A stretch of 64,000 nucleotides of DNA, from NCBI GenBank assembly GCA_900541205.1, contig UQIV01000001.1, positions 97,593 through 161,592 of the forward strand. Direction: 5' to 3'. The stretch comes from an uncultured Collinsella sp. (lineage in GTDB: Bacteria > Actinomycetota > Coriobacteriia > Coriobacteriales > Coriobacteriaceae). The notes under the pieces were generated by a model that ran no database searches, was not told the DNA's origin, and saw nothing but the letters and a program-made list of their open reading frames with translations. How positions within the stretch are numbered: the stretch's first letter is position 1; each line of letters opens with the position of its first letter. Below are positions 420 to 14,998 of this stretch, one piece after another. Position numbers and translations under genes: made by a program.

Positions 420-2921
420 CTATTTCGTCTTGCCGGTAATGAGCGTCTTAAGACCCAGGCCAATCAGGCCCAGGCCCATGCGCACGCGGCCGGGGCGATG
501 GCGCTCGATGGCCTTGGTCTTGCCGGCGGGCTTATCGCGACGGGCGCTCGTCTCGGGTGCGGGCTTGGTGACCTGCGGCTCGGGCTGAGGTGCAGGTGCA
601 GGCTCGGGATCAATGACGGTCACCTGGACCTTCTGAACCTCGGGCGCTTTCTCCACGGCGGGCTCTGCGGCAGCCTCGGGCTCATTCACCGGGGGAGCGG
701 CAATCGCTTCCGGTTTGGCAACTGCCCTATGTTCAACCTCGGCCTGAATAGCTTCTTCGGCCACGCGTTCCTTCTCCTGTGCGCGCTGCTGCGCGGCCGC
801 CTCGGCGTTGCGATAGGCACGCTCCAGCAGAGCTTCCTGTGAGTTGAAGGGCCTCTCGCCCTCGTGGCGCTCCACGGGAACCCAGGTGCCGTCGCTCGTG
901 AGGCTGCGGGCCTTCACGTTGTCGCGCAGCTGCATGCCCATGTACTCGTGTACCAGTGCGCGGCAGGTGGGGTCGAGCACGGGGAAGGCGATCTCCACGC
1001 GGTGCTCGGTGTTGCGCGTCATCATGTCGGCCGAGCTCAGATAGATCATGTCCGAGTCCACGCCAAAGGCGTAGACGCGCGCATGCTCCAAAAAGCGTCC
1101 GACGATGGAGCGTACGTGCACGTTCTCGGTCTTGCCCGGAACACCGGGCTTGAGGCACGAGATGCCGCGGATGATCATGTCTACGCGGACTCCTGCGCAC
1201 GATGCCTCGGCGATCTTGTCGATGACTTCGCGGTCGGTGAGCGAGTTGAGCTTAAAGAACACACGGGCGGGTTCGCCAGCGAGGGCGCGCTGGATTTCGC
1301 GATCCAGGCCGCGCATGATGAGCGGCTTCAGGCCGACCGGCGCCACGCCCAGGAAGCGGTAATCGCCGCGCAGGTTGCCCAGCGACAGATTGCGGAAGAA
1401 CAAGTTGGCGTCCTCGCCGATGCCGGGATGGGCGGTCATGAGCATAAAGTCGCTGTAGAGCTTGGCCGTCTTCTCGTTAAAGTTGCCGGTGCCCAACAGC
1501 GTCAGGCGTGTAAGCGCCATGCCCTCGCGATAGGTGAGCTGGCAGATCTTGGAGTGGCACTTAAAGCCTTCGGAGCCGTAGATGACGGTGCAGCCTGCCT
1601 CTTCCAGACGCTCGGCCCACTCGATGTTGTTCTGCTCGTCGAAGCGGGCGCGGAGCTCCATGAGCACCGTGACCTCTTTGCCGTTCTCGGCGGCATCGAT
1701 CAGCGACTCGCACAGGCGGCTCTGCTTAGCCACGCGGTAGAGCGTGATGCGCAGTGAGATGCACTCGGGGTCGTAGGCGGCCTCGTGTACCAGATCCAGG
1801 AAGGGGTTCATGGCCTCATAGGGATAAAAGAGCAGCTTGTCGTGCTGAAGTACCTGCTCGCGGATGGAGCGGGTCATATCGATGGTGGGGTTGGGCTGCG
1901 GCTTAAACGGCGTAAAGAGCAGCTCGTTGCGCAGGTGCTCGGGAATCTTGCCCTCAATGCCAAAGACATAGCCCAGGTTGAGCGGGATGTCGCAGGTAAA
2001 GACCGAGCGACGCGAGAGCTCGAGCGCCTTGCGGATAGTCTTGAGCGTCTGCTTCTCGAGTGAGCCCGAGACGGCGAGCACTACCGGCTGCAGGCGCAAG
2101 CGCTTCTTGAGGATGCGCTTCATATGCTGGCGGTAGTCCTCTTCCTCCTCGACGCCCTCGCCGTCCGGATCGATATCGGCATTGCGGGTGACGCGGATGA
2201 GCGCGCGGTCGAGCGGCTTATAGGAGCCAAAGCAGCTGTCCAGGCAGGCGAGGATGACGTCCTCGAGCAGAATGTAGGAGTAGGTGCCGGTGGGCGAGGG
2301 GATCTCGACCACGCGGTTCATCGAGGCGGGAATCTCGATCAGGCCCAGCAAGCTTTCCTCGTCGGTGACGCCGTCCAGGCCGCAGGCCAGGTAAAGTGCG
2401 CCGTTGCGCAGGTTGGGGAAGGGGTGGCGCGGGTCGATCACCAGCGGTGAGATGACCGGCGACACGTAGGCCTGGAAGTAGCGGGTTACAAAGGTGCGCT
2501 CCTCGGGCGTAAGCGAATCGATGCGGGCGCGGTGAACGCCCAGGGTGTCGAGCTTGCCCTCGATGCTCTTAAAGATGGACTCCCAACGGGTAAGGAGCCC
2601 GGGCAGCTCCGCCATGACAGCATCGACCTGCTCCGAGGCGGTCATATTGCTCTTGTTGTCGACAGGTTGCTTTTTGAGCTCGGCAAGGTCGGACAGGCCA
2701 CCCACGCGCACCATGAGGAACTCATCGAGGTTTGACTCGAAGATCGAGACGAACTTAAGGCGCTCGAACAGCGGCACGGACTCATCAAAAGCCTCGTCGA
2801 GCACACGGTTGTCAAAGCGTAGCCAGCTGAGCTCTCGGTTCTGCGTGTACGAGAAGTCGCGCGGCGGTTTGCGCAGCTTTGCGGCGGCTTGCTTTTTTTC
2901 GATTTTGCTCGGCATATGCAT
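420..2921 (-). CDS. ppk: polyphosphate kinase 1, with a long Pro/Glu/Ala-rich C-terminal extension
   Basis: The 846-aa ORF carries PPK1 N-terminal signatures (SKIEKK...RELSWLRFDNRVLDEAFDESVPLFERLKFVSIFESNLDEFLMVRVGGL). The likely start is MHMPSK at 2921 (or 2915), not the ORF-track start at 2960. The C-terminal ~150 aa are low complexity. Confidence 0.9.
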   Translation of the reverse strand: MHMPSKIEKKQAAAKLRKPPRDFSYTQNRELSWLRFDNRVLDEAFDESVPLFERLKFVSIFESNLDEFLMVRVGGLSDLAELKKQPVDNKSNMTASEQVDAVMAELPGLLTRWESIFKSIEGKLDTLGVHRARIDSLTPEERTFVTRYFQAYVSPVISPLVIDPRHPFPNLRNGALYLACGLDGVTDEESLLGLIEIPASMNRVVEIPSPTGTYSYILLEDVILACLDSCFGSYKPLDRALIRVTRNADIDPDGEGVEEEEDYRQHMKRILKKRLRLQPVVLAVSGSLEKQTLKTIRKALELSRRSVFTCDIPLNLGYVFGIEGKIPEHLRNELLFTPFKPQPNPTIDMTRSIREQVLQHDKLLFYPYEAMNPFLDLVHEAAYDPECISLRITLYRVAKQSRLCESLIDAAENGKEVTVLMELRARFDEQNNIEWAERLEEAGCTVIYGSEGFKCHSKICQLTYREGMALTRLTLLGTGNFNEKTAKLYSDFMLMTAHPGIGEDANLFFRNLSLGNLRGDYRFLGVAPVGLKPLIMRGLDREIQRALAGEPARVFFKLNSLTDREVIDKIAEASCAGVRVDMIIRGISCLKPGVPGKTENVHVRSIVGRFLEHARVYAFGVDSDMIYLSSADMMTRNTEHRVEIAFPVLDPTCRALVHEYMGMQLRDNVKARSLTSDGTWVPVERHEGERPFNSQEALLERAYRNAEAAAQQRAQEKERVAEEAIQAEVEHRAVAKPEAIAAPPVNEPEAAAEPAVEKAPEVQKVQVTVIDPEPAPAPQPEPQVTKPAPETSARRDKPAGKTKAIERHRPGRVRMGLGLIGLGLKTLITGKTK

Positions 2922-3110
2922 CTGTCCGTTCAGTCCCCGCGGGGGACGGTAGCCTAACACTATTCACTATTGTCTCAATTTAGTCGACTTGTGGCACGGA
3001 CGTATTGTGCGAACGGTATCTTAACCTACTTCTTACGCTGCCAATGCATGCAACTAACTGCCTGACTCGTTTTGAAAACAATCCATATCCATACTCAACT
3101 GGTGAGGATG

Positions 3111-3150
3111 TATGAATAAGAATGATTGCGAGCTGAATATAATCGAATCC
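3111..3150. promoter_or_regulatory. candidate tandem ARG boxes (ArgR/AhrC-like operator) upstream of arcA copy 1
   Basis: TATGAATAAGAATGATTG (3111-3128) and CTGAATATAATCGAATCC (3133-3150) contain TGAAT-A/T-rich motifs. Box 1 matches the Bacillus AhrC consensus CATGAATAAAAATKCAAK at about 13 of 18 positions. Spacing is ~22 bp. Confidence 0.3.
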
Positions 3151-3345
3151 AAATCGAATCGCGGACAAACGACATATATATGCAGAAAACCGTTTTAGCT
3201 ATGCAATTCCTAAACATGAAAATATTTGTGCAATCTGGCTTAATTCCTTAGAAAAAAGAACGTTTACCTTTGAAAACCTGCTTTAGAAAACTGAAGTGCA
3301 TCATGGGGGAATCATATGCGATATACCGTTCATCGCACTTTGCTG

Positions 3346-3473
3346 ACCGTTCGGGGGCGAGGTGGAATTGCGGGTGGTTTTTGGATATAACTAGAGCTGT
3401 CAGCAAGCAGCGTCCCATACGGAGGGGCGCTGATACATTCGGCCAGTAAGGCCCGAAAGAAAGGTAGGAGGCC
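3346..3473 (+). promoter_or_regulatory. conserved arcA leader/promoter region, copy 1 (the homologous copy is at 6437-6563)
   Basis: The blocks CCGTTCGGGGGCGAGGTGGAA, TTTTGGATATAA (extended -10-like), ACGGAGGGGCGCT and a short hairpin before the RBS GGTAGGAGG sit at the same offsets upstream of both arcA copies. The sequence between the blocks differs. Confidence 0.4.
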
Positions 3474-4715
3474 ATGACGAAAGGTCTGCACGTGCCTTCC
3501 GAGATCGGCAAGCTCAGGAAGGTCTGCCTGCACCGTCCCGGCGACGAGCTCCTCAACCTGCCGCCCGACGAGCTCGAGCGACTCCTGTTCGACGACGTCC
3601 CGTTCCTGGAGGTCGCACAGCAGGAGCACGACACCTTCGCCCAGATCCTGAGGGACCAGGGCGTGGAGGTCCTCTACCTCGAGAACCTCGTCGCCGAGGT
3701 GTTCGACCAGGTCCCCGGCGCCCGCGCCGAGTTCACCGACCAGTACATCGCCGAGGCCGGCATCCGCGGCCAGCACATGCCGCAGATCGTCCGCGAGAAG
3801 CTGGACTCCATCGAGGACAACCTCGAGTTCGTCAAGAAGACCATGGCCGGCATGACCAAGGCCGAGATCGACATGCCCCTCACGGCGTCCACGACCCTCG
3901 ACTCCCTGGTCAACTCCGAGTCCGAGTCCGACCTGATCATCGACCCGATGCCCAACCTCTACTTCACCCGCGACCCGTTCGCGGTCGTCGGCGAGGGCGT
4001 CAACCTCAACCGCATGTACTCGGTCACCCGCAACCGCGAGACCCTGTACGGCAAGTACGTCTTCAAGTACCACCCCGACTACAAGGACGTCTCCCTGTAC
4101 TTCCGCCGCGACTGCCAGTTCCACACCGAGGGCGGCGACGTGCTGAACATCAACGAGAAGACCCTCGCCGTCGGCATCTCCCAGCGCACCCAGGCCGCGG
4201 CCATCGACGTCATGGCCCAGAACATCTTCTGGAACTCCGACTCCAAGGTCGAGCGCATCCTGGCCTTCGACATCCCGGTCTCGCGCGCCTTCATGCACCT
4301 CGACACGGTCTTCACCCAGATCGACGTCGATAAGTTCACGATCCACCCCGCCATCATGGGCACCCTGCGCGTCTACGAGCTGACCGCCGGCAAGAACCCG
4401 GGCGACGTGAACATCCGCCTGATCGAGGACACCCTCGAGCACGTCCTGGAGGACGCCACCGGCGTCGACCAGGTCAAGCTGATCCCCTGCGGCGGCGGCG
4501 ACCCGATCGCGGCCTCCCGCGAGCAGTGGAACGACGGCTCCAACACCCTGTGCGTCGAGCCCGGCAAGATCTGCGTCTACGCCCGCAACACCGTCACCAA
4601 CGACGTGCTGTACAAGGAGGGCCTGGACCTTCTCGTCGTGCCCTCCGCCGAGCTCTCCCGCGGCCGCGGCGGCCCGCGCTGCATGAGCATGCCCTTCTGG
4701 CGCGAGGACCTCTAA
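3474..4715 (+). CDS. arcA: arginine deiminase, copy 1
   Basis: The 413-aa protein MTKGLHVPSEIGKLRKVCLHRPGDEL... is full-length ADI family. The RBS GGTAGGAGG lies 5 nt upstream. It is nucleotide-identical to the ORF at 6564-7805. Confidence 0.95.
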   Translation: MTKGLHVPSEIGKLRKVCLHRPGDELLNLPPDELERLLFDDVPFLEVAQQEHDTFAQILRDQGVEVLYLENLVAEVFDQVPGARAEFTDQYIAEAGIRGQHMPQIVREKLDSIEDNLEFVKKTMAGMTKAEIDMPLTASTTLDSLVNSESESDLIIDPMPNLYFTRDPFAVVGEGVNLNRMYSVTRNRETLYGKYVFKYHPDYKDVSLYFRRDCQFHTEGGDVLNINEKTLAVGISQRTQAAAIDVMAQNIFWNSDSKVERILAFDIPVSRAFMHLDTVFTQIDVDKFTIHPAIMGTLRVYELTAGKNPGDVNIRLIEDTLEHVLEDATGVDQVKLIPCGGGDPIAASREQWNDGSNTLCVEPGKICVYARNTVTNDVLYKEGLDLLVVPSAELSRGRGGPRCMSMPFWREDL

Positions 4716-4776
4716 GGTCTTCAAGGACCCGTACAGGTCTTAATACATACATCTAGCTGCCATTAGATGTCTCCCA

Positions 4777-4816
4777 TTGGGGCGGTGCGGGTATTCGCAC
4801 CGCCCCAATCTTGTAT
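4777..4816 (+). terminator. intrinsic-terminator-like hairpin after arcA copy 1
   Basis: Perfect 13-bp stem TTGGGGCGGTGCG/CGCACCGCCCCAA with a 6-nt loop, followed by TCTTGTAT. Confidence 0.5.
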
Positions 4817-5989
4817 GAGGAACGTCAACACGATTGGATGACTGCTTTTGTAAGGAGCTTGGCCATGGATATCAAGACAATCGGCGTTGAGGAATGGCTT
4901 AACGTTTGGGAGAAGAACGCTACGTGGGATATCGCCCAGTCGACGATTTCGTCGCTTACCATGGGCGAGCTTCGCGCGCTCGACGATCAAGATGGTGCCA
5001 CGTTCTACGAGCGCCTGGACCGCGAGAAAATGAACTACGGCTGGATTGAGGGTTCGCCGGAGTTTAAGGCCGAGGTTGCCAAGCTGTATCGTCATGAGGT
5101 CAATCCCGATCATATTCTGCAGACCAATGGCTGCACGGGTGCCAACCTCAACGCCATCATGGCCGTGGTCGAGCCCGGCGGCCATGTGATTGCCGAGTGG
5201 CCCACCTATGCGCCGCTCTATGAGATCCCGCGTACACTCGGCGCCGAGGTTGAGTATTGGGAGCTTTGCGAGGAGCTCGGATGGAAACCCGATATCGAAC
5301 AGCTCAAGCGCCTCGTTCGCCCCAACACCAAGCTCATTTGCATCAATAACGCATCGAACCCTATCGGTACGGTGCTCGATGCCGATACGCTCGGCCAGAT
5401 CGCCGAGATTGCCCGCTCGGTTGGCGCCTATGTGCTGTGCGACGAGGTGTACCTGCCGCTTGAGAACACCGAGGACTTTTTGTCGATGGCCGATGTGTAC
5501 GAGAAGGCCATCGTCACCAACTCGGTGTCCAAGACCTATTCGACGCCTGCGGCCCGTGTGGGCTGGGTTGTGGCAGATGAAGAGGTGTCCAACCGCATTC
5601 GCACTTACCGCGACTACACCATGATTTGCGGCGGCGTGTTCAACGATGCCCTGGCGACCTATGTGCTCAAGCACAAGGACAAAATCCTCGAGCGCAATCG
5701 CAAGATCGTGTTTGGCAATCGCGATATCGCACAGGCTTGGATCGACACACAACACCGTGTCTCCTGGACGGCCCCGCAGGGTGTGTCCACCTCGTTTATC
5801 CAGCTGGACATTCCCGAGGATGACGAGGAGTTCTGCAAGCGCCTGCTGTCCGAGAGGGGAGTGCTGCTGGTACCTGGCAGCCGCTTTGAGCTTCCCTGCG
5901 GCGCGCGCCTAGGTTACTGCGCGAGCGAGGACGTTCTGCGCGAGGGCCTGAGGCTTTTGGGCGAGGCGCTGGCGGAGTTCGATCGCTAG
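4811..5989 (+). CDS. PLP-dependent aminotransferase, class I/II fold
   Basis: The 392-aa ORF has an NSVSKTYS block containing the PLP-Lys SxSK motif and aminotransferase-like overall composition. It sits between the two arcA copies. The start may be one of several in-frame Met codons between 4811 and 4870. Confidence 0.7.
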   Translation: MYEERQHDWMTAFVRSLAMDIKTIGVEEWLNVWEKNATWDIAQSTISSLTMGELRALDDQDGATFYERLDREKMNYGWIEGSPEFKAEVAKLYRHEVNPDHILQTNGCTGANLNAIMAVVEPGGHVIAEWPTYAPLYEIPRTLGAEVEYWELCEELGWKPDIEQLKRLVRPNTKLICINNASNPIGTVLDADTLGQIAEIARSVGAYVLCDEVYLPLENTEDFLSMADVYEKAIVTNSVSKTYSTPAARVGWVVADEEVSNRIRTYRDYTMICGGVFNDALATYVLKHKDKILERNRKIVFGNRDIAQAWIDTQHRVSWTAPQGVSTSFIQLDIPEDDEEFCKRLLSERGVLLVPGSRFELPCGARLGYCASEDVLREGLRLLGEALAEFDR

Positions 5990-6036
5990 GATCACGACTC
6001 CCTCCGAAGGCCGTATTCAAATTGGCCGACGATAAT

Positions 6037-6078
6037 CGAAAACGGACCCGTTTCCCTAGGGAATCGGGTCCGTTTTTC
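6037..6078 (+). terminator. strong intrinsic terminator after the aminotransferase
   Basis: Near-perfect ~20-bp palindrome GAAAACGGACCCGTTTCCCTA/TAGGGAATCGGGTCCGTTTTT, followed by a T-run. Confidence 0.7.
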
Positions 6079-6436
6079 TATACCGAGAAGTCAAGTTGTT
6101 ACAAATGGAGACGCAAGATCGATTGGGTATTCGACCAGCCTTATACTGAGCTTCCGGTGAACGGTATCCAACGTCTGGTAAACGGTAATCTGTTTGCCAA
6201 AAATGAATAGGACGAACTTTATTCTGAATAAAAATCAAAATGGTTGAGACGAAGCGAGAATTGCGAATTCTATTCATATCGGTGCGCGAAATATGCAATT
6301 TGAGGGTGGTTTAATAAAGATTAGTTTCAATTGATCTTTGGATTGAAAACGCATTTAAGCACGTAAATACACTTTATTAAATCAAAGTGTGCCATGCGTG
6401 AAGTATATGTGTATGCCGTTCACCCCTCATATAAAA

Positions 6437-6563
6437 CCGTTCGGGGGCGAGGTGGAAGTATGGACTGATTTTGGATATAAATATGTCGTCAGCAATAACG
6501 CCTCACACGGAGGGGCGCTAACGAATCGGCCCTGACAGGGGCCCGAAAGAAAGGTAGGAGGCC
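6437..6563 (+). promoter_or_regulatory. conserved arcA leader/promoter region, copy 2
   Basis: Same conserved blocks as at 3346-3473. The final ~33 nt including the RBS are identical to copy 1. Confidence 0.4.
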
Positions 6564-7805
6564 ATGACGAAAGGTCTGCACGTGCCTTCCGAGATCGGCA
6601 AGCTCAGGAAGGTCTGCCTGCACCGTCCCGGCGACGAGCTCCTCAACCTGCCGCCCGACGAGCTCGAGCGACTCCTGTTCGACGACGTCCCGTTCCTGGA
6701 GGTCGCACAGCAGGAGCACGACACCTTCGCCCAGATCCTGAGGGACCAGGGCGTGGAGGTCCTCTACCTCGAGAACCTCGTCGCCGAGGTGTTCGACCAG
6801 GTCCCCGGCGCCCGCGCCGAGTTCACCGACCAGTACATCGCCGAGGCCGGCATCCGCGGCCAGCACATGCCGCAGATCGTCCGCGAGAAGCTGGACTCCA
6901 TCGAGGACAACCTCGAGTTCGTCAAGAAGACCATGGCCGGCATGACCAAGGCCGAGATCGACATGCCCCTCACGGCGTCCACGACCCTCGACTCCCTGGT
7001 CAACTCCGAGTCCGAGTCCGACCTGATCATCGACCCGATGCCCAACCTCTACTTCACCCGCGACCCGTTCGCGGTCGTCGGCGAGGGCGTCAACCTCAAC
7101 CGCATGTACTCGGTCACCCGCAACCGCGAGACCCTGTACGGCAAGTACGTCTTCAAGTACCACCCCGACTACAAGGACGTCTCCCTGTACTTCCGCCGCG
7201 ACTGCCAGTTCCACACCGAGGGCGGCGACGTGCTGAACATCAACGAGAAGACCCTCGCCGTCGGCATCTCCCAGCGCACCCAGGCCGCGGCCATCGACGT
7301 CATGGCCCAGAACATCTTCTGGAACTCCGACTCCAAGGTCGAGCGCATCCTGGCCTTCGACATCCCGGTCTCGCGCGCCTTCATGCACCTCGACACGGTC
7401 TTCACCCAGATCGACGTCGATAAGTTCACGATCCACCCCGCCATCATGGGCACCCTGCGCGTCTACGAGCTGACCGCCGGCAAGAACCCGGGCGACGTGA
7501 ACATCCGCCTGATCGAGGACACCCTCGAGCACGTCCTGGAGGACGCCACCGGCGTCGACCAGGTCAAGCTGATCCCCTGCGGCGGCGGCGACCCGATCGC
7601 GGCCTCCCGCGAGCAGTGGAACGACGGCTCCAACACCCTGTGCGTCGAGCCCGGCAAGATCTGCGTCTACGCCCGCAACACCGTCACCAACGACGTGCTG
7701 TACAAGGAGGGCCTGGACCTTCTCGTCGTGCCCTCCGCCGAGCTCTCCCGCGGCCGCGGCGGCCCGCGCTGCATGAGCATGCCCTTCTGGCGCGAGGACC
7801 TCTAA
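6564..7805 (+). CDS. arcA: arginine deiminase, copy 2 (identical to copy 1)
   Basis: Protein identical to the 3474-4715 product. The DNA is identical from ~30 nt upstream of the ATG through the stop codon. Confidence 0.95.
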   Translation: MTKGLHVPSEIGKLRKVCLHRPGDELLNLPPDELERLLFDDVPFLEVAQQEHDTFAQILRDQGVEVLYLENLVAEVFDQVPGARAEFTDQYIAEAGIRGQHMPQIVREKLDSIEDNLEFVKKTMAGMTKAEIDMPLTASTTLDSLVNSESESDLIIDPMPNLYFTRDPFAVVGEGVNLNRMYSVTRNRETLYGKYVFKYHPDYKDVSLYFRRDCQFHTEGGDVLNINEKTLAVGISQRTQAAAIDVMAQNIFWNSDSKVERILAFDIPVSRAFMHLDTVFTQIDVDKFTIHPAIMGTLRVYELTAGKNPGDVNIRLIEDTLEHVLEDATGVDQVKLIPCGGGDPIAASREQWNDGSNTLCVEPGKICVYARNTVTNDVLYKEGLDLLVVPSAELSRGRGGPRCMSMPFWREDL

Positions 7806-7817
7806 GTCTTTCCGTTT

Positions 7818-7865
7818 CCGGTGCGGTCCCCCTACAACCGCACCGGTTTCGCCCGTCAAACGGGC
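7818..7865 (+). terminator. hairpin(s) between arcA copy 2 and arcB, possible partial terminator or attenuator
   Basis: Perfect 10-bp stem CCGGTGCGGT/ACCGCACCGG followed by TTT, then a second small hairpin GCCCGTcaaACGGGC. The T-run is short, so read-through into arcB is plausible. Confidence 0.35.
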
Positions 7866-7910
7866 AACATTAATACTTACGTAATTCATTTTTTCGAAAG
7901 GAAACGAACC

Positions 7911-8906
7911 ATGGGTGTTAACCTCTCCGGCCGTAGCTTCCTCAAGCTTCTCGACCTCACCACCGAGGAGATCGAGTACCTGCTCAAGCTCTCCAAGAAC
8001 TTCAAGGACATGAAGCGCGCTGGCGTTCCGCACCGCTATCTCGAGGGCAAGAACATCGTTCTGCTCTTCCAGAAGACCTCCACTCGTACCCGCTGCGCCT
8101 TCGAGGTCGGCGGCATGGATCTGGGCATGGGCGTCACCTACCTCGATCCCGGTTCGTCGCAGATGGGCAAGAAGGAGTCCATCGAGGACACCGCCCGCGT
8201 TCTCGGCCGCATGTATGACGGCATCGAGTTCCGTGGCTTTGCCCAGGACGACGTCGAGGAGCTCGCTGCTAAGTCCGGCGTGCCCGTGTGGAACGGCCTG
8301 ACCACTGAGTGGCATCCCACCCAGATGCTCGCCGACATCCTGACCGTCCAGGAGAACTTCAACTACGACATCAAGGGCAAGACCCTCGTCTTCATGGGCG
8401 ACTGCAAGAACAATGTCGCTCGCTCCCTCATGGTTGTCTGCTCCAAGCTCGGCATGAACTTCGTGGCCTGCGGCCCCGAGGAGTGCATGCCCGCTGACGA
8501 CGTCATCGAGGCCTGCAAGCCCATCGCCGAGGCTAACGGATGCACCATCAAGCTGACCACCGACGTCAAGGACGGCGTCACCGGTGCCGACGTTATCTAC
8601 ACCGACGTGTGGGTCTCCATGGGCGAGCCCGACGAGGTCTGGGCCGAGCGCATCGCTCAGCTCACCCCGTATCGCGTTACCTCCGAGGTCATGGCTATGG
8701 CCAACCCGGGTGCCATCTTCCTGCACTGCCTGCCCAGCTTCCACGACATCAACACCACCATTGGCGCCGAGAAGTGCGAGCAGTTCGGCATCACCGAGCA
8801 GGAGGTCACCGACGAGGTCTTCGAGAGCCCCGCTTCCAAGGTCTTCGACGAGGCCGAGAACCGCATGCACACCATCAAGGCTGTCATGTACGCCACGCTC
8901 AAGTAA
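7911..8906 (+). CDS. arcB: ornithine carbamoyltransferase (catabolic type expected in an ADI locus)
   Basis: STRTRCAFE carbamoyl-phosphate-binding motif and HCLP motif present. The 331-aa product starts at MGVNLSG with the RBS GGAAACGAACC upstream. Confidence 0.9.
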   Translation: MGVNLSGRSFLKLLDLTTEEIEYLLKLSKNFKDMKRAGVPHRYLEGKNIVLLFQKTSTRTRCAFEVGGMDLGMGVTYLDPGSSQMGKKESIEDTARVLGRMYDGIEFRGFAQDDVEELAAKSGVPVWNGLTTEWHPTQMLADILTVQENFNYDIKGKTLVFMGDCKNNVARSLMVVCSKLGMNFVACGPEECMPADDVIEACKPIAEANGCTIKLTTDVKDGVTGADVIYTDVWVSMGEPDEVWAERIAQLTPYRVTSEVMAMANPGAIFLHCLPSFHDINTTIGAEKCEQFGITEQEVTDEVFESPASKVFDEAENRMHTIKAVMYATLK

Positions 8907-9053
8907 GAGCATCTAGCATCTCGCTCGGGGTGTCTTGCTGCACACCCCGAGCGGCTTTGTCTGGTAAATATCTCGCGTCGGGCGGTGGGCACGGCACGGA
9001 AGATCCGCTTCGCGCGAGAAAGTTAAATGATTTATGAAGGGGGGATGAGAACC

Positions 9054-10532
9054 ATGACTGAGACCGCTAAGAAAAAGCGCGGTATGCCTTCATCGTTCAC
9101 CATTCTTCTAGCTCTGCTGGCAATTGTTGCAGTGATTACCGTTATCGTCTCCGGCACGTCCGGCGGCGCGGTTACTGCAGCCCGCCTGAGCGATTTCTGC
9201 ACCGCCCCGATCCTGGGCTTCGCTGACGCTCTGCCCGTCTGCCTCTTCGTTATGATCCTGGGCGGCTTCCTCGGTATGATGACCGAGACCGGCGCTCTGG
9301 ACAACGGCATCGCCGTTCTGGTGCAGAAGCTTAAGGGCAACGAGATCATGCTCGTTCCTGTCCTTATGCTCATCTTCTCCCTCGGTGGTACCACCTATGG
9401 TATGTGCGAGGAGACCGTTCCCTTCTACGCCCTGCTCGCCGCTACCATGATGGCCGCCGGCTTCGACCCCATGGTCGGCGCCGCTACCGTCCTGCTCGGC
9501 GCTGGCTGCGGCTGCCTGGGCTCCACGGTTAACCCGTTCGCCGTCGGCGCTGCCGTCGACGCTCTGACCGGCGTTGGCATTGAGGTCAACCAGTCCATCA
9601 TCATCGGCCTCGGTGCCGTCCTGTGGATTGTCACTACCGCTATGTCCATCGTCTTCGTGATGAACTATGCCAAGAAGGTCAAGGCTGACAAGGGCTCCAC
9701 CATCCTGTCGATGCAGGAGCTCAAGGACGCCGAAGAGGCTCACGGCAAGGCTGCTTCCGAGGTCCACAAGGAGGTCAAGCTCACCGGTCGTCAGAAGGGT
9801 GTTCTGATCGCCTTCGCCTTCACCTTCGTCGTCATGATCGTCGGCTTCATTCCGCTGGCCGACCTCAACGAGGGCGTCGCCAACTTCTTCGACGCTGGCG
9901 CTGTCTACGACGCCGACGGTAACGCCGTCGTCCAGGGCTGGTCTGCCCTGATCACCGGCCTGCCCATTGGCCAGTGGTACTTCGACGAGGCTTCCACCTG
10001 GTTCTTCCTCATGGCCGTCCTGATCGGTATCATCGGTGGCCTGTCCGAGAAGCAGATCGTTAACACCTTCATCACCGGCGCTGCCGACATGATGTCCGTT
10101 GTTCTCGTCATCGCCCTCGCCCGTGGTATCTCCGTCCTCATGGCTAACACCGGCCTCGACGTCTTCGTCCTCGACGCTGCCGCCAATGCCCTGGCTGGCC
10201 TGTCCGGCGTGATCTTCGCTCCCATGAGCTTCCTGGTCTACTTCGGCCTGTCCTTCCTGATCCCCTCGACCTCTGGTATGGCTACCGTCTCCATGCCCAT
10301 CATGGGACCGCTGGCTGTTAAGCTCGGCTTCTCGCCCGAGGTCATGGTCATGATCTTCTCCGCTGCTATCGGTGTCGTGAACCTGTTCACCCCGACCTCC
10401 GGTGCCATCATGGGCGGTCTCGCCCTGGCCAAGATCGAGTGGACGACCTGGCTCAAGTTTGCCCTTAAGCTCATCGTCGCGCTCTCCGTTGTCTGCGCCA
10501 TCATCCTGACCGTCGCCTGCGTGTTGCTCTAA
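9054..10532 (+). CDS. YfcC/DcuC-family membrane transporter, putative arginine/ornithine antiporter of the ADI locus
   Basis: About 490 aa, multi-pass hydrophobic, positioned directly after arcB. The start at 9054 is preferred because the RBS GAAGGGGGG lies 8-9 nt upstream. The ORF track starts at 9027. Confidence 0.75.
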   Translation: MTETAKKKRGMPSSFTILLALLAIVAVITVIVSGTSGGAVTAARLSDFCTAPILGFADALPVCLFVMILGGFLGMMTETGALDNGIAVLVQKLKGNEIMLVPVLMLIFSLGGTTYGMCEETVPFYALLAATMMAAGFDPMVGAATVLLGAGCGCLGSTVNPFAVGAAVDALTGVGIEVNQSIIIGLGAVLWIVTTAMSIVFVMNYAKKVKADKGSTILSMQELKDAEEAHGKAASEVHKEVKLTGRQKGVLIAFAFTFVVMIVGFIPLADLNEGVANFFDAGAVYDADGNAVVQGWSALITGLPIGQWYFDEASTWFFLMAVLIGIIGGLSEKQIVNTFITGAADMMSVVLVIALARGISVLMANTGLDVFVLDAAANALAGLSGVIFAPMSFLVYFGLSFLIPSTSGMATVSMPIMGPLAVKLGFSPEVMVMIFSAAIGVVNLFTPTSGAIMGGLALAKIEWTTWLKFALKLIVALSVVCAIILTVACVLL

Positions 10533-10635
10533 GTACCCAACGGGTACCCCACGGAAACCTTGACGATCCTGTAAAGGATCATCTGGTCATCGTCTGTCCG
10601 GTGGGGTCAACCCACCGGTAGACTCCTACCTTTAG

Positions 10636-10700
10636 CCCCCTCCCGTTCCGTGCGCGGGAGGGGGCGCTCTTGTGTTCCGGCGTTTTACCAAACGCCGGAA
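10636..10700 (+). terminator. tandem hairpins after the transporter gene
   Basis: Stem CCCCCTCCCG/CGGGAGGGGG followed by CGCTCTTGTGTT, then TTCCGGCGTTTtaccAAACGCCGGAA with a perfect 11-bp stem. Confidence 0.5.
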
Positions 10701-11088
10701 CCACTCGACGCTGCGCGCCGCCCAGGACGACAATTTGTCATTCAAAAGACAAGGCATGACCAGAAGGTCTATGCCTTGCCTTTTTCATGCCAACTTATAC
10801 GTCCTGGACGTCGCTCGCTGACTTATGCTCAACCTGCGACGTTCCCCTTGTTGGTGCAGGGGGCAGCTTGCTCGCTCTGGCGGGCGCTCGTTGACTTTGG
10901 CTCTGCCTGTGACGTTTCCATTGTTGGTGCGGAGCGACTTGGTCATTGCTTCAAATTAGCTACCCCGGGTCCCCGGTGGTTGTGGTGGGCGTGTTTGGTT
11001 GGTGCCTGTTGATGGTCTGGGTATCGGGGAGGGCGGGCTCCGTTATAATCGCCTAGAACATTAATTGGAAACGGGACGGGAGCCATAC

Positions 11089-12570
11089 ATGCGCCAGGGT
11101 TTCGACAACGCGAAGTATATCGAGCTGCAGGCCGCTCATATTAAGGAGCGCATCTCGCAGTTTGGCGGCAAACTCTATTTGGAGTTTGGCGGCAAGCTGT
11201 TTGACGACTATCACGCGAGCCGCGTGCTGCCGGGTTTTGAACCGGATAGCAAGTTTCGCATGCTCAAGAGCATTGCCGATGACGTCGAGGTCATCATCGC
11301 CATTAACGCGAACCACATCGAGAAGAACAAGGCTCGCGGTGACCTGGGCATTACCTATGACGAGGACGTTTTGCGCCTGGTCGACCTGTTCCGCGGCAAC
11401 GGTTTTGCTGTCGCGGCCGTGGTCATCACCCAGTACGCCGGCCAGCCCGCCGCCGATGTGTTCCGCAATCGCCTGAACGCGCTCGGCATTCCCGCCAAGT
11501 TGCACTATCCCATCGAGGGCTATCCGCACGACGTCGACCTGATCGTGTCCGACGACGGCTATGGCAAGAACGAGTTTGTCGAGACCACTCGTCCGCTCGT
11601 CGTGGTCACCGCCCCCGGCCCCGGCTCGGGCAAGCTCGCCACCTGCCTGTCTCAGCTCTATCACGAGCACAAGCACGGCACCGCTGCCGGCTACGCCAAG
11701 TTCGAGACCTTCCCGGTCTGGAACCTTCCCCTCACGCATCCGGTCAACATCGCCTACGAGGCCGCCACGGCCGACCTTGACGATGCCAATATCATCGACT
11801 CCTTCCACTTGGAGGCCTATAACAAGACTACGGTCAACTACAACCGCGACGTCGAGGCCTTCCCGGTGGTCCGTGCCCTGATGGAAAAGATCCTGGGCAA
11901 GAGCCCCTACCAGAGCCCCACGGACATGGGCGTCAATATGGTCGGCTTTGCCATCACCGATGACGATGCCTGCCGCGACGCTTCCAAGATGGAGATTGTC
12001 CGCCGCTACTTTACCGCGGTCGAAAATGTGCGCCGTACCGGCGTGGGCGATGAACAGGTTGATCGTCTCAAGATCATTATGAAGAAGGCCGGTATCGACA
12101 AGAACTACTCGCCGGCGCGCTCGGCCGCCCTTACCAGGGAGCAGCTGACGGGTGGCCCCGTAGGCGCCATGGTCATGCCCGACGGCTCCGTGGTGACCGG
12201 CAAGACTTCCACGCGCCTGGGCGCCGCGAGCTCGCTCATCATGAATGCACTTAAGCATGTCTCGGGCGTTGACCTTGAGCTCGAGGTCATCAGCGATGAG
12301 GCGATCGAGCCTATCAGCAAGCTCAAGACGCATTTCCTGGGTAGCAAGAACCCGCGCCTGCACACCGACGAGACGCTTATGGCGCTCTCGATCACCTCGG
12401 CAACGAGCGAGACGGCGGCCCGCGTCCTTTCGGGCCTGGAGCAGCTGCGCGGGTGCGATGCCTTCTTTAGCGTGATCATCTCGCCGACGGACGAGACGGT
12501 GTTGCGCAAGCTGGGCATCAACGTGTGCTGCGAGCCCAAGTTTGAGCGCCGTGGTTTCTTCCACCGCTAA
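11089..12570 (+). CDS. UPF0371/DUF1846 family protein
   Basis: About 490 aa. Sequence and length (MRQGFDNAKYIELQAAHIKERISQFGGKLYLEFGGKLFDDYHASRVLPGFEPDSKF...) are typical of the UPF0371 family found in Gram-positives. Start chosen at MRQGF. Confidence 0.65.
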   Translation: MRQGFDNAKYIELQAAHIKERISQFGGKLYLEFGGKLFDDYHASRVLPGFEPDSKFRMLKSIADDVEVIIAINANHIEKNKARGDLGITYDEDVLRLVDLFRGNGFAVAAVVITQYAGQPAADVFRNRLNALGIPAKLHYPIEGYPHDVDLIVSDDGYGKNEFVETTRPLVVVTAPGPGSGKLATCLSQLYHEHKHGTAAGYAKFETFPVWNLPLTHPVNIAYEAATADLDDANIIDSFHLEAYNKTTVNYNRDVEAFPVVRALMEKILGKSPYQSPTDMGVNMVGFAITDDDACRDASKMEIVRRYFTAVENVRRTGVGDEQVDRLKIIMKKAGIDKNYSPARSAALTREQLTGGPVGAMVMPDGSVVTGKTSTRLGAASSLIMNALKHVSGVDLELEVISDEAIEPISKLKTHFLGSKNPRLHTDETLMALSITSATSETAARVLSGLEQLRGCDAFFSVIISPTDETVLRKLGINVCCEPKFERRGFFHR

Positions 12571-12590
12571 GCCTGGATAAATTGGTCTGA

Positions 12591-12630
12591 AAGGGGCACA
12601 TCGGGTATGCATTCGGTGTGCCCCTTTTAT
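12591..12630 (+). terminator. rho-independent terminator after the UPF0371 gene
   Basis: GGGGCACA-16 nt loop-TGTGCCCC followed by TTTT. Confidence 0.75.
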
Positions 12631-12819
12631 CAACAAAGCTACCGTTTAACCTAAAAATAGCCCGCTTACCTGCCTATAAGCGATTTGGGCGGTATACAAT
12701 AACCCTAATTGTTTCATCCTTTTGCGGGGATGCCGCATGATGGATGTTGCCGGCCATCATGGGGTGTGCCGGTCGCGCACGGTGCAAGTGATGCCCGTGC
12801 TCGGTTTGAGGAGGCTGCC

Positions 12820-13158
12820 ATGGCTGGCAAGGGTCGTGCGAGTGTCAACGATATGAAGCGTGTCGAGGTGCAGGTGCTGATGGAGATCGCACGGCTGTCC
12901 GAAGACAACGGCGGATTTTATGGCTTTTCGCGCAAGACGCTTGCCGAGCGTGTGGGGGTGTCTCCGTATCGCGCCCGCGCGGCAATTGAGCGCTTGGAAT
13001 CCGAAGACATCATCGAGGTCGTCTCGCGCTACAGCGACGACGGCGGCCAGCTCGCAAATGGTATTTGTCTCACGGAGCGTGGCGAGTGGTATCTAGAGGG
13101 CATCCGTGCCGGTATGCTCGTGCAGGACTTGATCAAGGACGAAATTGCCGATCGATAA
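12820..13158 (+). CDS. small hypothetical protein with a probable winged-helix DNA-binding fold
   Basis: 112 aa starting at MAGKGRASVNDMKR. The RBS GAGGAGG lies 7 nt upstream. The internal segment LAERVGVSPYRARAAIERLESEDIIEVV looks HTH-like. No family assignment was possible from sequence alone. Confidence 0.4.
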   Translation: MAGKGRASVNDMKRVEVQVLMEIARLSEDNGGFYGFSRKTLAERVGVSPYRARAAIERLESEDIIEVVSRYSDDGGQLANGICLTERGEWYLEGIRAGMLVQDLIKDEIADR

Positions 13159-13330
13159 CAGCGCGCATTCATAGTGGAAACGACGCCGCCTGGGCAACCG
13201 GACGGCGTTTTGTTTCGAGATAGAGAAATGCGATTGCGCGTAAGAAAAATTGCGTGCGGCGCGCGTCGCGAGTATTACAATGAAGACCCGTAAGATGTGT
13301 ATGGACAACTTCTACGGGAAGCGCAGGTAA

Positions 13331-14998
<1,668 letters not shown>

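Follow-up and report, generated by a model that had tools for sequence, protein, structure and literature searches.

The arc locus and its perfect direct repeat

The window analysed here is a 64,000-nt stretch of the genome of an uncultured Collinsella sp. (contig UQIV01000001.1), to which all positions below refer. It carries two copies of arcA, the gene encoding arginine deiminase, and we argue that this pair is very probably an old duplication kept uniform by gene conversion. The gene order is ppk1 (minus strand); leader 1, arcA1, a hairpin, a gene for a pyridoxal phosphate (PLP)-dependent aminotransferase and a terminator; leader 2, arcA2, a gene for ornithine carbamoyltransferase (OTC), a gene for an ArcE-type transporter and a terminator; and then a DUF1846 gene, a gene for a helix-turn-helix (HTH) protein and pyrG. 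Unless a strand is given, the features described are on the plus strand.

Base-by-base comparison of the window with itself at an offset of 3090 revealed one single perfect run, and a repeat search found the same pair: positions 3450-4716 and 6540-7806 are 100% identical over 1267 nt, which cannot be the product of chance. The repeat starts 24 nt before each arcA ATG, includes the shared ribosome-binding site AAGGTAGGAGG and ends 1 nt past the TAA stop codon of both copies, boundaries that match stand-alone 1267-nt contigs of other strains. An earlier note on this DNA had let the identity run from about 30 nt upstream of the ATG to exactly the stop codon; the identity does extend upstream of the gene and does end abruptly, but both limits had to be corrected to the values given here. 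Within the repeat, arcA1 (3474-4715) and arcA2 (6564-7805) encode one and the same 413-residue protein, a claim of that note borne out by the offset comparison and the open reading frames (ORFs), and this protein scores above the threshold of the NCBIfam arginine deiminase equivalog TIGR01078 (494.5 bits, cut-off 489.1). The offset comparison likewise upheld that unrelated sequence follows the two copies.

Behind arcA1 lies a strong GC-rich hairpin (4776-4809) with a stem of ~14-15 bp and no clear U-tract. The region 4716-4830 folds with -48.3 kcal/mol (z = -5.8), and the hairpin probably acts as a partial terminator or as a 3' stabiliser of the mRNA. The next gene encodes a class I/II PLP aminotransferase of 374 residues (4865-5989; Pfam PF00155; NCBIfam PRK07324 = NF005593, 529.9 bits, cut-off 476), whose nearest solved structure is 3op7, and its 3' side carries a hairpin with a T-run that resembles an intrinsic terminator (6040-6079). 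A terminator scan missed the hairpins behind arcA1 and behind the aminotransferase gene, and both were read by eye from the sequence. Between arcA2 and OTC, folding revealed two further hairpins (7818-7865), which share no sequence relationship with the one behind arcA1. The OTC gene is arcB (7911-8906, with the start taken from gene calls in related loci), encoding a catabolic OTC of 331 residues (TIGR00658, 403.5 bits, cut-off 280.85). It is followed by a gene for a 492-residue ArcE-type protein of the DcuC/YfcC family (9054-10532; PF03606, 272 bits), a putative arginine/ornithine exchanger that stays under the cut-off of the NCBIfam YfcC equivalog NF008611 (203.6 bits, cut-off 500), and by a conserved terminator hairpin at 10635-10665. 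The cluster thus contains arcA and arcB by the TIGR01078 and TIGR00658 thresholds. No gene for carbamate kinase (arcC) was present among the annotated genes from ppk to pyrG (420-14998), the stretch to which the search was limited; with arcC absent in and beside the arc cluster, any gene for the ATP-yielding step must lie in another part of the genome.

Two diverged leaders precede the arcA genes

Leader 1 lies in the ppk-arcA1 intergenic region (2961-3449), and its diverged duplicate, leader 2, occupies 6080-6539; both were defined by their mutual homology, by motif enrichment and by folding of the 5' untranslated region (5'UTR). Homology between them is clear from ~-215 to -25, with ~72% identity over ~150 nt (blastn). 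The ~110 bp of upstream homology at ~70-75% identity described previously was therefore right in degree and too short in extent. Two blocks are perfectly conserved (22 nt at 3346-3367 and 12 nt at 3379-3390), and weaker collinear islands reach ~-330 or beyond.

A motif search located boxes of the type WACCGTTY at 3011-3018(-), 3188-3195(+) and 3324-3331(+) in leader 1 and at 6159-6166(-), 6180-6187(-) and 6435-6442(+) in leader 2. Six of the 11 matches in the window thus fall in the two arcA upstream regions, against 4.8 expected across the whole 64 kb. Leader 1 also contains the related box GACCGTTC at 3347-3354 and a -10-like TATAAC at ~3386-3391, and leader 2 has the related box TGCCGTTC at ~6414-6421 and a -10-like TATAAA. 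On sequence grounds, the WACCGTTY box is a candidate operator for some arc regulator. Near the promoter the boxes form pairs with a spacing of ~22 nt, and others stand inverted 250-310 nt upstream; the proximal boxes are kept in single-copy relatives too. A sigma-70 promoter scan returned nothing in the leaders.

Each of the two 5'UTRs (3395-3476 and 6485-6566) folds into two hairpins, and natural variants of hairpin 1 mostly preserve pairing (AGCGTCC/GGGGCGCT, AGCGCCC/GGGTGCT and AGCACCC/GGGTGCT). In both folds a conserved GTCAG element pairs with the start-codon region. These structures come from single-sequence folds, and we do not claim a conserved RNA element: RNAalifold on 11 leaders gave only eight weak pairs (-2.9 kcal/mol), a poor signal that arises because outgroup leaders align badly, and a scan of the entire window, leaders included, matched no known RNA family at the Rfam gathering threshold.

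The two-copy layout recurs in independent assemblies

A perfect repeat of this length invites suspicion, and the earlier note had considered that an assembler might have pasted one arcA onto a diverged paralogue. More generally, the true genome might hold a single arcA, or two diverged ones, with a collapsed consensus copied into both places. Short-read assemblers do collapse this repeat. An index of public assemblies has the exact arcA protein in 13,566 blocks, all assigned to the Collinsella aerofaciens group, and in 5825 of these blocks it occurs only on contigs shorter than 2 kb; moreover, a stand-alone contig of exactly 1267 nt is present in five isolate or MGnify short-read assemblies, and one of 1273 nt in a sixth. 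This is the signature expected of a collapsed two-copy repeat. Assemblers also yield chimeric or looped contigs around it (for example L019, L072 and L089).

Such an artefact is nevertheless extremely unlikely to explain the locus. The complete genome CP024160.1 shows the same two-copy layout, with distinct unique flanks on either copy, and so do at least six other independent contigs of 1.5-2.6 Mb; identity persists in these assemblies that span the repeat, contrary to what an artefact predicts. An OPERA-MS hybrid contig also carries both arcA copies, one of them with frameshift errors. Where differences between copies exist they are resolved, as in one genome (L010) with seven differing sites, all of them natural alleles. 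We therefore rejected the proposal that an assembler had overwritten one copy with the other.

Assembly errors do leave traces around the repeat. At 9800-9976 of the isolate contig L089, the first 79 nt of the repeat are followed by 98 nt and then by the full repeat, which is probably a k-mer-length glitch in the assembly path, not biology. Two candidates were discarded: P0022 (91% identity), considered as an intermediate lineage, proved to be an error-ridden hybrid assembly of the same locus, and P0019, considered as a second divergent arcA in C. phocaeensis, is the same protein with another start call.

arcA copies agree within genomes and differ between them

We compared 52 genomes in which both arcA copies are complete. 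Within a genome, the paralogues differed at no site in 39 cases, at one site in 12 and at seven sites in one. Between genomes, by contrast, arcA differed at ~9 sites on average and at 23 at most, and the distance from copy 1 of one genome to copy 2 of another equalled that between their first copies. Because short-read assembly partly forces identity, eight long contigs and the window were compared separately, and each has its own combination of silent variants in both copies, with between-genome distances of 1-13. Copies in related genomes are thus near-identical within a genome and different between genomes, with no instance of two divergent arcA genes, and this supports the earlier proposal of gene conversion confined to the coding region beside diverged regulatory DNA.

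The absence of any difference in the window could also reflect a very recent duplication that has had no time to diverge, so that conversion would be unnecessary. This is hardly credible in view of the surrounding DNA. The leaders, duplicated with the gene, have diverged by ~28%. The two-copy architecture is common to the species complex: leader 1, leader 2, the aminotransferase gene and the OTC gene are orthologous and collinear in every two-copy locus, and leader 2 and the aminotransferase gene are 4-15% diverged between genomes. It extends to a lineage (L110) whose arcA is 7.6% diverged, and genome-specific silent variants sit in both copies. The divergence between the paralogous leaders together with the orthologous, diverged flanks places the duplication before the radiation of the complex, and independent recent duplications are excluded because flanking DNA between the same genomes is orthologous across them and yet 2-20% diverged.

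Three kinds of variation at the locus bear on the conversion process. In the 2.29-Mb contig L010, the seven differences between the copies form two clusters (201-327 and 759-834), and all seven differing alleles segregate in other strains, so that L010 is a true mosaic; for example, foreign DNA may have been imported into one copy, with homogenisation still pending. In the 1.47-Mb contig L045, the 5'UTR of copy 2 has been replaced by leader-1 sequence, from the conserved TTTTGGATATAA block to the ATG. The converted tract there reaches ~85 nt further into the 5'UTR than usual, which shows that the usual boundary at -24 can be crossed. Finally, in eight genomes one copy ends in TAG and the other in TAA, the differing base lying at the very 3' edge of the tract.

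Could extreme purifying and codon-usage selection alone freeze both copies, with no exchange between them? The strong codon bias of arcA (effective number of codons, ENC, 24.5; GC content at third codon positions, GC3, 0.978) and its very low silent diversity (synonymous divergence, dS, 0.021) would fit. The sequence is not frozen, however: 135 copies comprise 90 distinct haplotypes, with many G/C silent polymorphisms, and a variant present in one copy of a genome is present in the other as well. It is not believable that up to 23 sites per pair of genomes were fixed independently and in parallel, and the overwritten 5'UTR of L045 lies outside the coding sequence. We consider selection without exchange highly improbable.

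Taken together, the arcA pair very probably represents a genuine ancient duplication in the Collinsella aerofaciens species complex that is homogenised by intrachromosomal gene conversion. Several points weigh against this reading. Short-read assemblies and metagenome-assembled genomes make up most of the 52, and in these a repeat that exceeds the insert size collapses and is used again; zero differences are thus partly forced, and independent weight falls on ~8 long contigs. The comparison was made on assemblies, whose long contigs may or may not be based on long reads; CP024160.1 is presumably a PacBio genome. Genomes were chosen by arcA protein similarity, which lowers arcA diversity and leaves the contrast within versus between genomes unaffected. 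The intergenic regions of the window hold no convincing remnants of OTC, arcE, permease or aminotransferase genes, which bears on the origin proposed below. That the transfer is non-reciprocal, RecA-dependent and directional is inferred.

The rarer lineage mentioned above is represented by contig L110, in which one copy was recovered (2975-4216). Its arcA has a GC3 of 0.983 and differs from that of the window by 7.6% in DNA and by 22 amino acid changes, and the contig has the rearranged order permease-aminotransferase-leader-arcA-OTC. A metagenome scan for this lineage returned no contig with both copies.

Possible deletion and amplification junctions at the repeat

Eight contigs (L016, L027, L039, L041, L042, L051, L087 and L088) show ppk-leader 1-arcA-OTC with the aminotransferase gene missing, and two of them are from isolates (L042 and L088; OF03-4AA and MSK.8.10). 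Two others, L072 and L019, carry the reciprocal junction aminotransferase-leader 2-arcA-aminotransferase expected of a circle or an amplification. It is plausible that recombination between the repeats excises or deletes the aminotransferase gene, but paths through a repeat loop give assemblers the same junctions; a real copy-number polymorphism at the locus is possible.

A stronger proposal would be that the repeats serve mainly for programmed copy-number switching of the arcA-aminotransferase unit, with identity as a by-product. The eight contigs have exactly the deletion product that switching predicts, and L072 and L019 the reciprocal one. However, de Bruijn assemblers emit both types of path from the graph of a repeat loop. 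L019 joins two aminotransferase alleles, 90% and 96% identical to that of the window, and is therefore a chimera of two strains, and the single-copy form was absent from every Mb-scale contig examined. We regard such switching as very unlikely.

The repeat has a practical consequence for assemblies of these bacteria. In all 89 contigs compared, from various strains and GTDB species, the 1.27-kb unit is 98.7-100% identical to the window's copy; because of it, short-read and metagenome assemblies are interrupted or wrongly joined here, which can fake 'deletions' of the aminotransferase gene.

Single-copy relatives suggest duplication of a whole operon

All seven single-copy relatives examined carry a single arcA as the first gene of an arcA-OTC operon with an ArcE-type (DcuC-family) transporter. 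The aminotransferase gene belongs to the operon in four of the seven and is preceded by a permease gene in two: it is the final gene in Collinsella phocaeensis (L091) and in contig L102, contig L106 (a Collinsella-level relative) ends its operon with an APC permease gene followed by the aminotransferase gene, and in the Atopobiaceae contig L107 permease and aminotransferase precede the ArcE-type gene. Contig L100 has lost the aminotransferase gene and keeps a 79-nt remnant of its 5' end (11222-11300) downstream of arcE, which indicates that the gene formerly closed the operon in this relative and that it has been lost more than once. The locus has no aminotransferase gene in contig L093 or in Enorma (L104). 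The relatives' aminotransferases are 69-82% identical in amino acid sequence to that of the window.

A gene for an APC-family permease lies directly upstream of the aminotransferase gene in L045 (8273-9826), L110 (3-1274), L106 (5401-6879) and L107 (5438-6910). In L045 it sits between arcA1 and the aminotransferase gene, and its product is 78.5% identical to the L106 permease, consistent with vertical descent. In most C. aerofaciens genomes, the window included, the permease gene has been cleanly lost.

The likeliest and most economical origin of the locus is a tandem duplication of the whole operon followed by reciprocal deletions. An ancestral leader-arcA-OTC-arcE-permease-aminotransferase operon would have been duplicated in tandem, after which the first unit would have lost OTC-arcE and the second unit permease-aminotransferase. 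Such a course of events would yield the exact gene order observed, the duplicated upstream region of ~460 nt and the end of homology at the arcA stop codon.

Silent-site composition of arcA

The codon bias of arcA is the strongest in the window (all other genes have an ENC of at least ~28-30), which indicates very high expression. The GC3 of arcA (0.978) likewise lies well beyond that of every other gene in the window, OTC (0.886), arcE (0.813) and the aminotransferase gene (0.755) among them. The arcA genes of the five single-copy relatives tested all have a lower GC3 (0.88-0.92) than OTC (0.89-0.95), and only the duplicated arcA exceeds OTC; GC3 is similarly high in arcA of the divergent duplicated-clade lineage L110. 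The near-total GC3 in the sense frame most likely also explains, as a by-product, two long antisense ORFs, one of 464 residues over arcA1 (3330-4724, minus strand) and one of 807 residues over arcA2-OTC (6489-8912, minus strand).

We polarised third-position silent changes on the C. aerofaciens branch with Enorma. Changes from A/T to G/C (W>S) outnumbered the opposite changes (S>W) by 13 to 1 in arcA, and the counts were 2 to 14 in OTC and 4 to 31 in arcE (Fisher p = 2e-5 for arcA versus OTC and 2e-8 for arcA versus OTC and arcE combined). Single-copy arcA lineages run in the opposite direction, with no W>S and 10-19 S>W changes. Codons for Ala, Val, Gly and Arg end in T in 29-37% of cases in OTC and arcE and in 2% in arcA. 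Within the complex, dS is 0.081 for OTC, 0.11 for arcE and 0.28-0.40 for ppk, the aminotransferase gene and DUF1846; arcA silent diversity is thus four-fold below that of OTC, although the choice of genomes by arcA protein similarity may deflate it somewhat. Distances to outgroups are similar (dS 0.41 for arcA and 0.35 for OTC), and G/C silent polymorphisms account for 36% of the third-position polymorphisms in arcA versus 4% in OTC.

This composition could reflect stronger selection for GC-ending codons on a gene whose dosage has doubled, or GC-biased conversion between the copies. Codon positions 1 and 2 of arcA have no bias (10 W>S versus 9 S>W), which favours selection and is still compatible with a weak conversion bias. 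The window contains no ribosomal-protein or tuf genes, so that optimal codons are not definable there. We consider it rather doubtful that frequent GC-biased conversion, and not just codon selection, has purged AT-ending silent variants since the duplication, raising GC3 from ~0.88-0.92 to 0.98 as co-transcribed neighbours moved toward AT and holding silent diversity ~four-fold below that of OTC. If this were true, the arcA pair would be a natural experiment exposing GC-biased gene conversion in a bacterium.

A model for the arcA pair

We propose that the locus comprises two transcription units, P1-arcA1-(hairpin)-aminotransferase-terminator and P2-arcA2-OTC-ArcE-terminator, each preceded by a diverged version of the ancestral arc promoter and leader. 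The coding copies would be continually homogenised by non-reciprocal homologous recombination, with conversion tracts beginning inside the 1.27 kb of perfect identity. On the 3' side, tracts would be limited by the end of homology at the stop codon. On the 5' side, the leaders (~28% diverged) would be too different to sustain a heteroduplex: its formation and extension need near-identity, so that tracts started in the identical block are expected to halt at the first heterology. Such a boundary would reinforce itself, with divergence accumulating outside and identity maintained inside, and would be crossed only rarely; selection for two distinct regulatory regions may contribute. The likely pay-off would be twice the gene dosage, under two regulatory regions, for an enzyme expressed at a very high level, with deiminase capacity exceeding carbamoyltransferase capacity.

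The paralogues tufA and tufB of Salmonella and Escherichia coli are highly expressed genes that evolve in concert. A survey of prokaryotic paralogues under concerted evolution lists 26 genes, including amoA and haoA but not arcA (Wang & Chen 2018, PMC6053082). Collinsella arcA resembles the tuf, amoA and haoA pairs in that two highly expressed copies are near-identical within a genome and orthologues diverge between lineages, in that homogenisation is limited to the coding region, with flanks and regulation differing, and in that a gain in dosage and in optimised codon usage has been proposed. It differs from tuf-type pairs in that the copies lie only 3.1 kb apart in direct orientation, which makes deletion or amplification a constant risk, and in that its documented depth is that of a single species complex rather than hundreds of millions of years. 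It is already established that duplicated, highly expressed bacterial genes evolve in concert through coding-restricted conversion, and arcA is a new and unusually well-documented case of it; our literature searches found no description of an arcA duplication in Collinsella.

Lassalle and co-workers reportedly proposed GC-biased gene conversion for bacteria in PLoS Genetics in 2015. In line with that proposal, arcA is a high-conversion locus with an AT-to-GC silent excess and a GC3 far above that of its neighbours and of single-copy orthologues. Unlike the allelic recombination between strains considered there, conversion of arcA takes place between paralogues, and its bias, which does not extend to codon positions 1 and 2, is hard to tell apart from translational selection.

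Arc clusters have been described as arcA-B-D1-C1-C2-T-D2 in Lactococcus lactis and as arcA-B-C-E-T in Streptococcus pneumoniae, in a study that also describes the ArcE exchanger concept and proposed that the L. lactis transaminase ArcT and an APC exchanger form a partial arginine transaminase route (Noens & Lolkema 2017, PMC5300872). The Collinsella cluster shares with these clusters arcA and arcB, with a putative ArcE-type (non-APC) exchanger gene in the position of arcE, and a putative transaminase gene attached to the cluster, together with an APC permease gene in some strains and relatives; duplicated arc genes are likewise known in such clusters. In Collinsella, unlike in these species, arcA itself is duplicated and heads two separate units, and arcC is missing from the cluster. 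The Collinsella permease-aminotransferase pair resembles L. lactis ArcD2-ArcT.

The arcA locus documents ongoing gene conversion across dozens of genomes of a highly prevalent human gut actinomycetote and captures rare intermediates, namely a mosaic and a genome whose tract is extended. It is tractable for work on the rate of conversion, tract limits and a possible GC bias in an anaerobe, and it may bear on the debate over GC-biased conversion. Cultures of C. aerofaciens build up more citrulline than ornithine (bioRxiv 10.64898/2026.08.03.742426). A ratio of two deiminase genes to one carbamoyltransferase gene would be expected to promote an overflow of citrulline, in agreement with that report, and the architecture of the locus thus suggests a reason for citrulline overproduction by C. 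aerofaciens.

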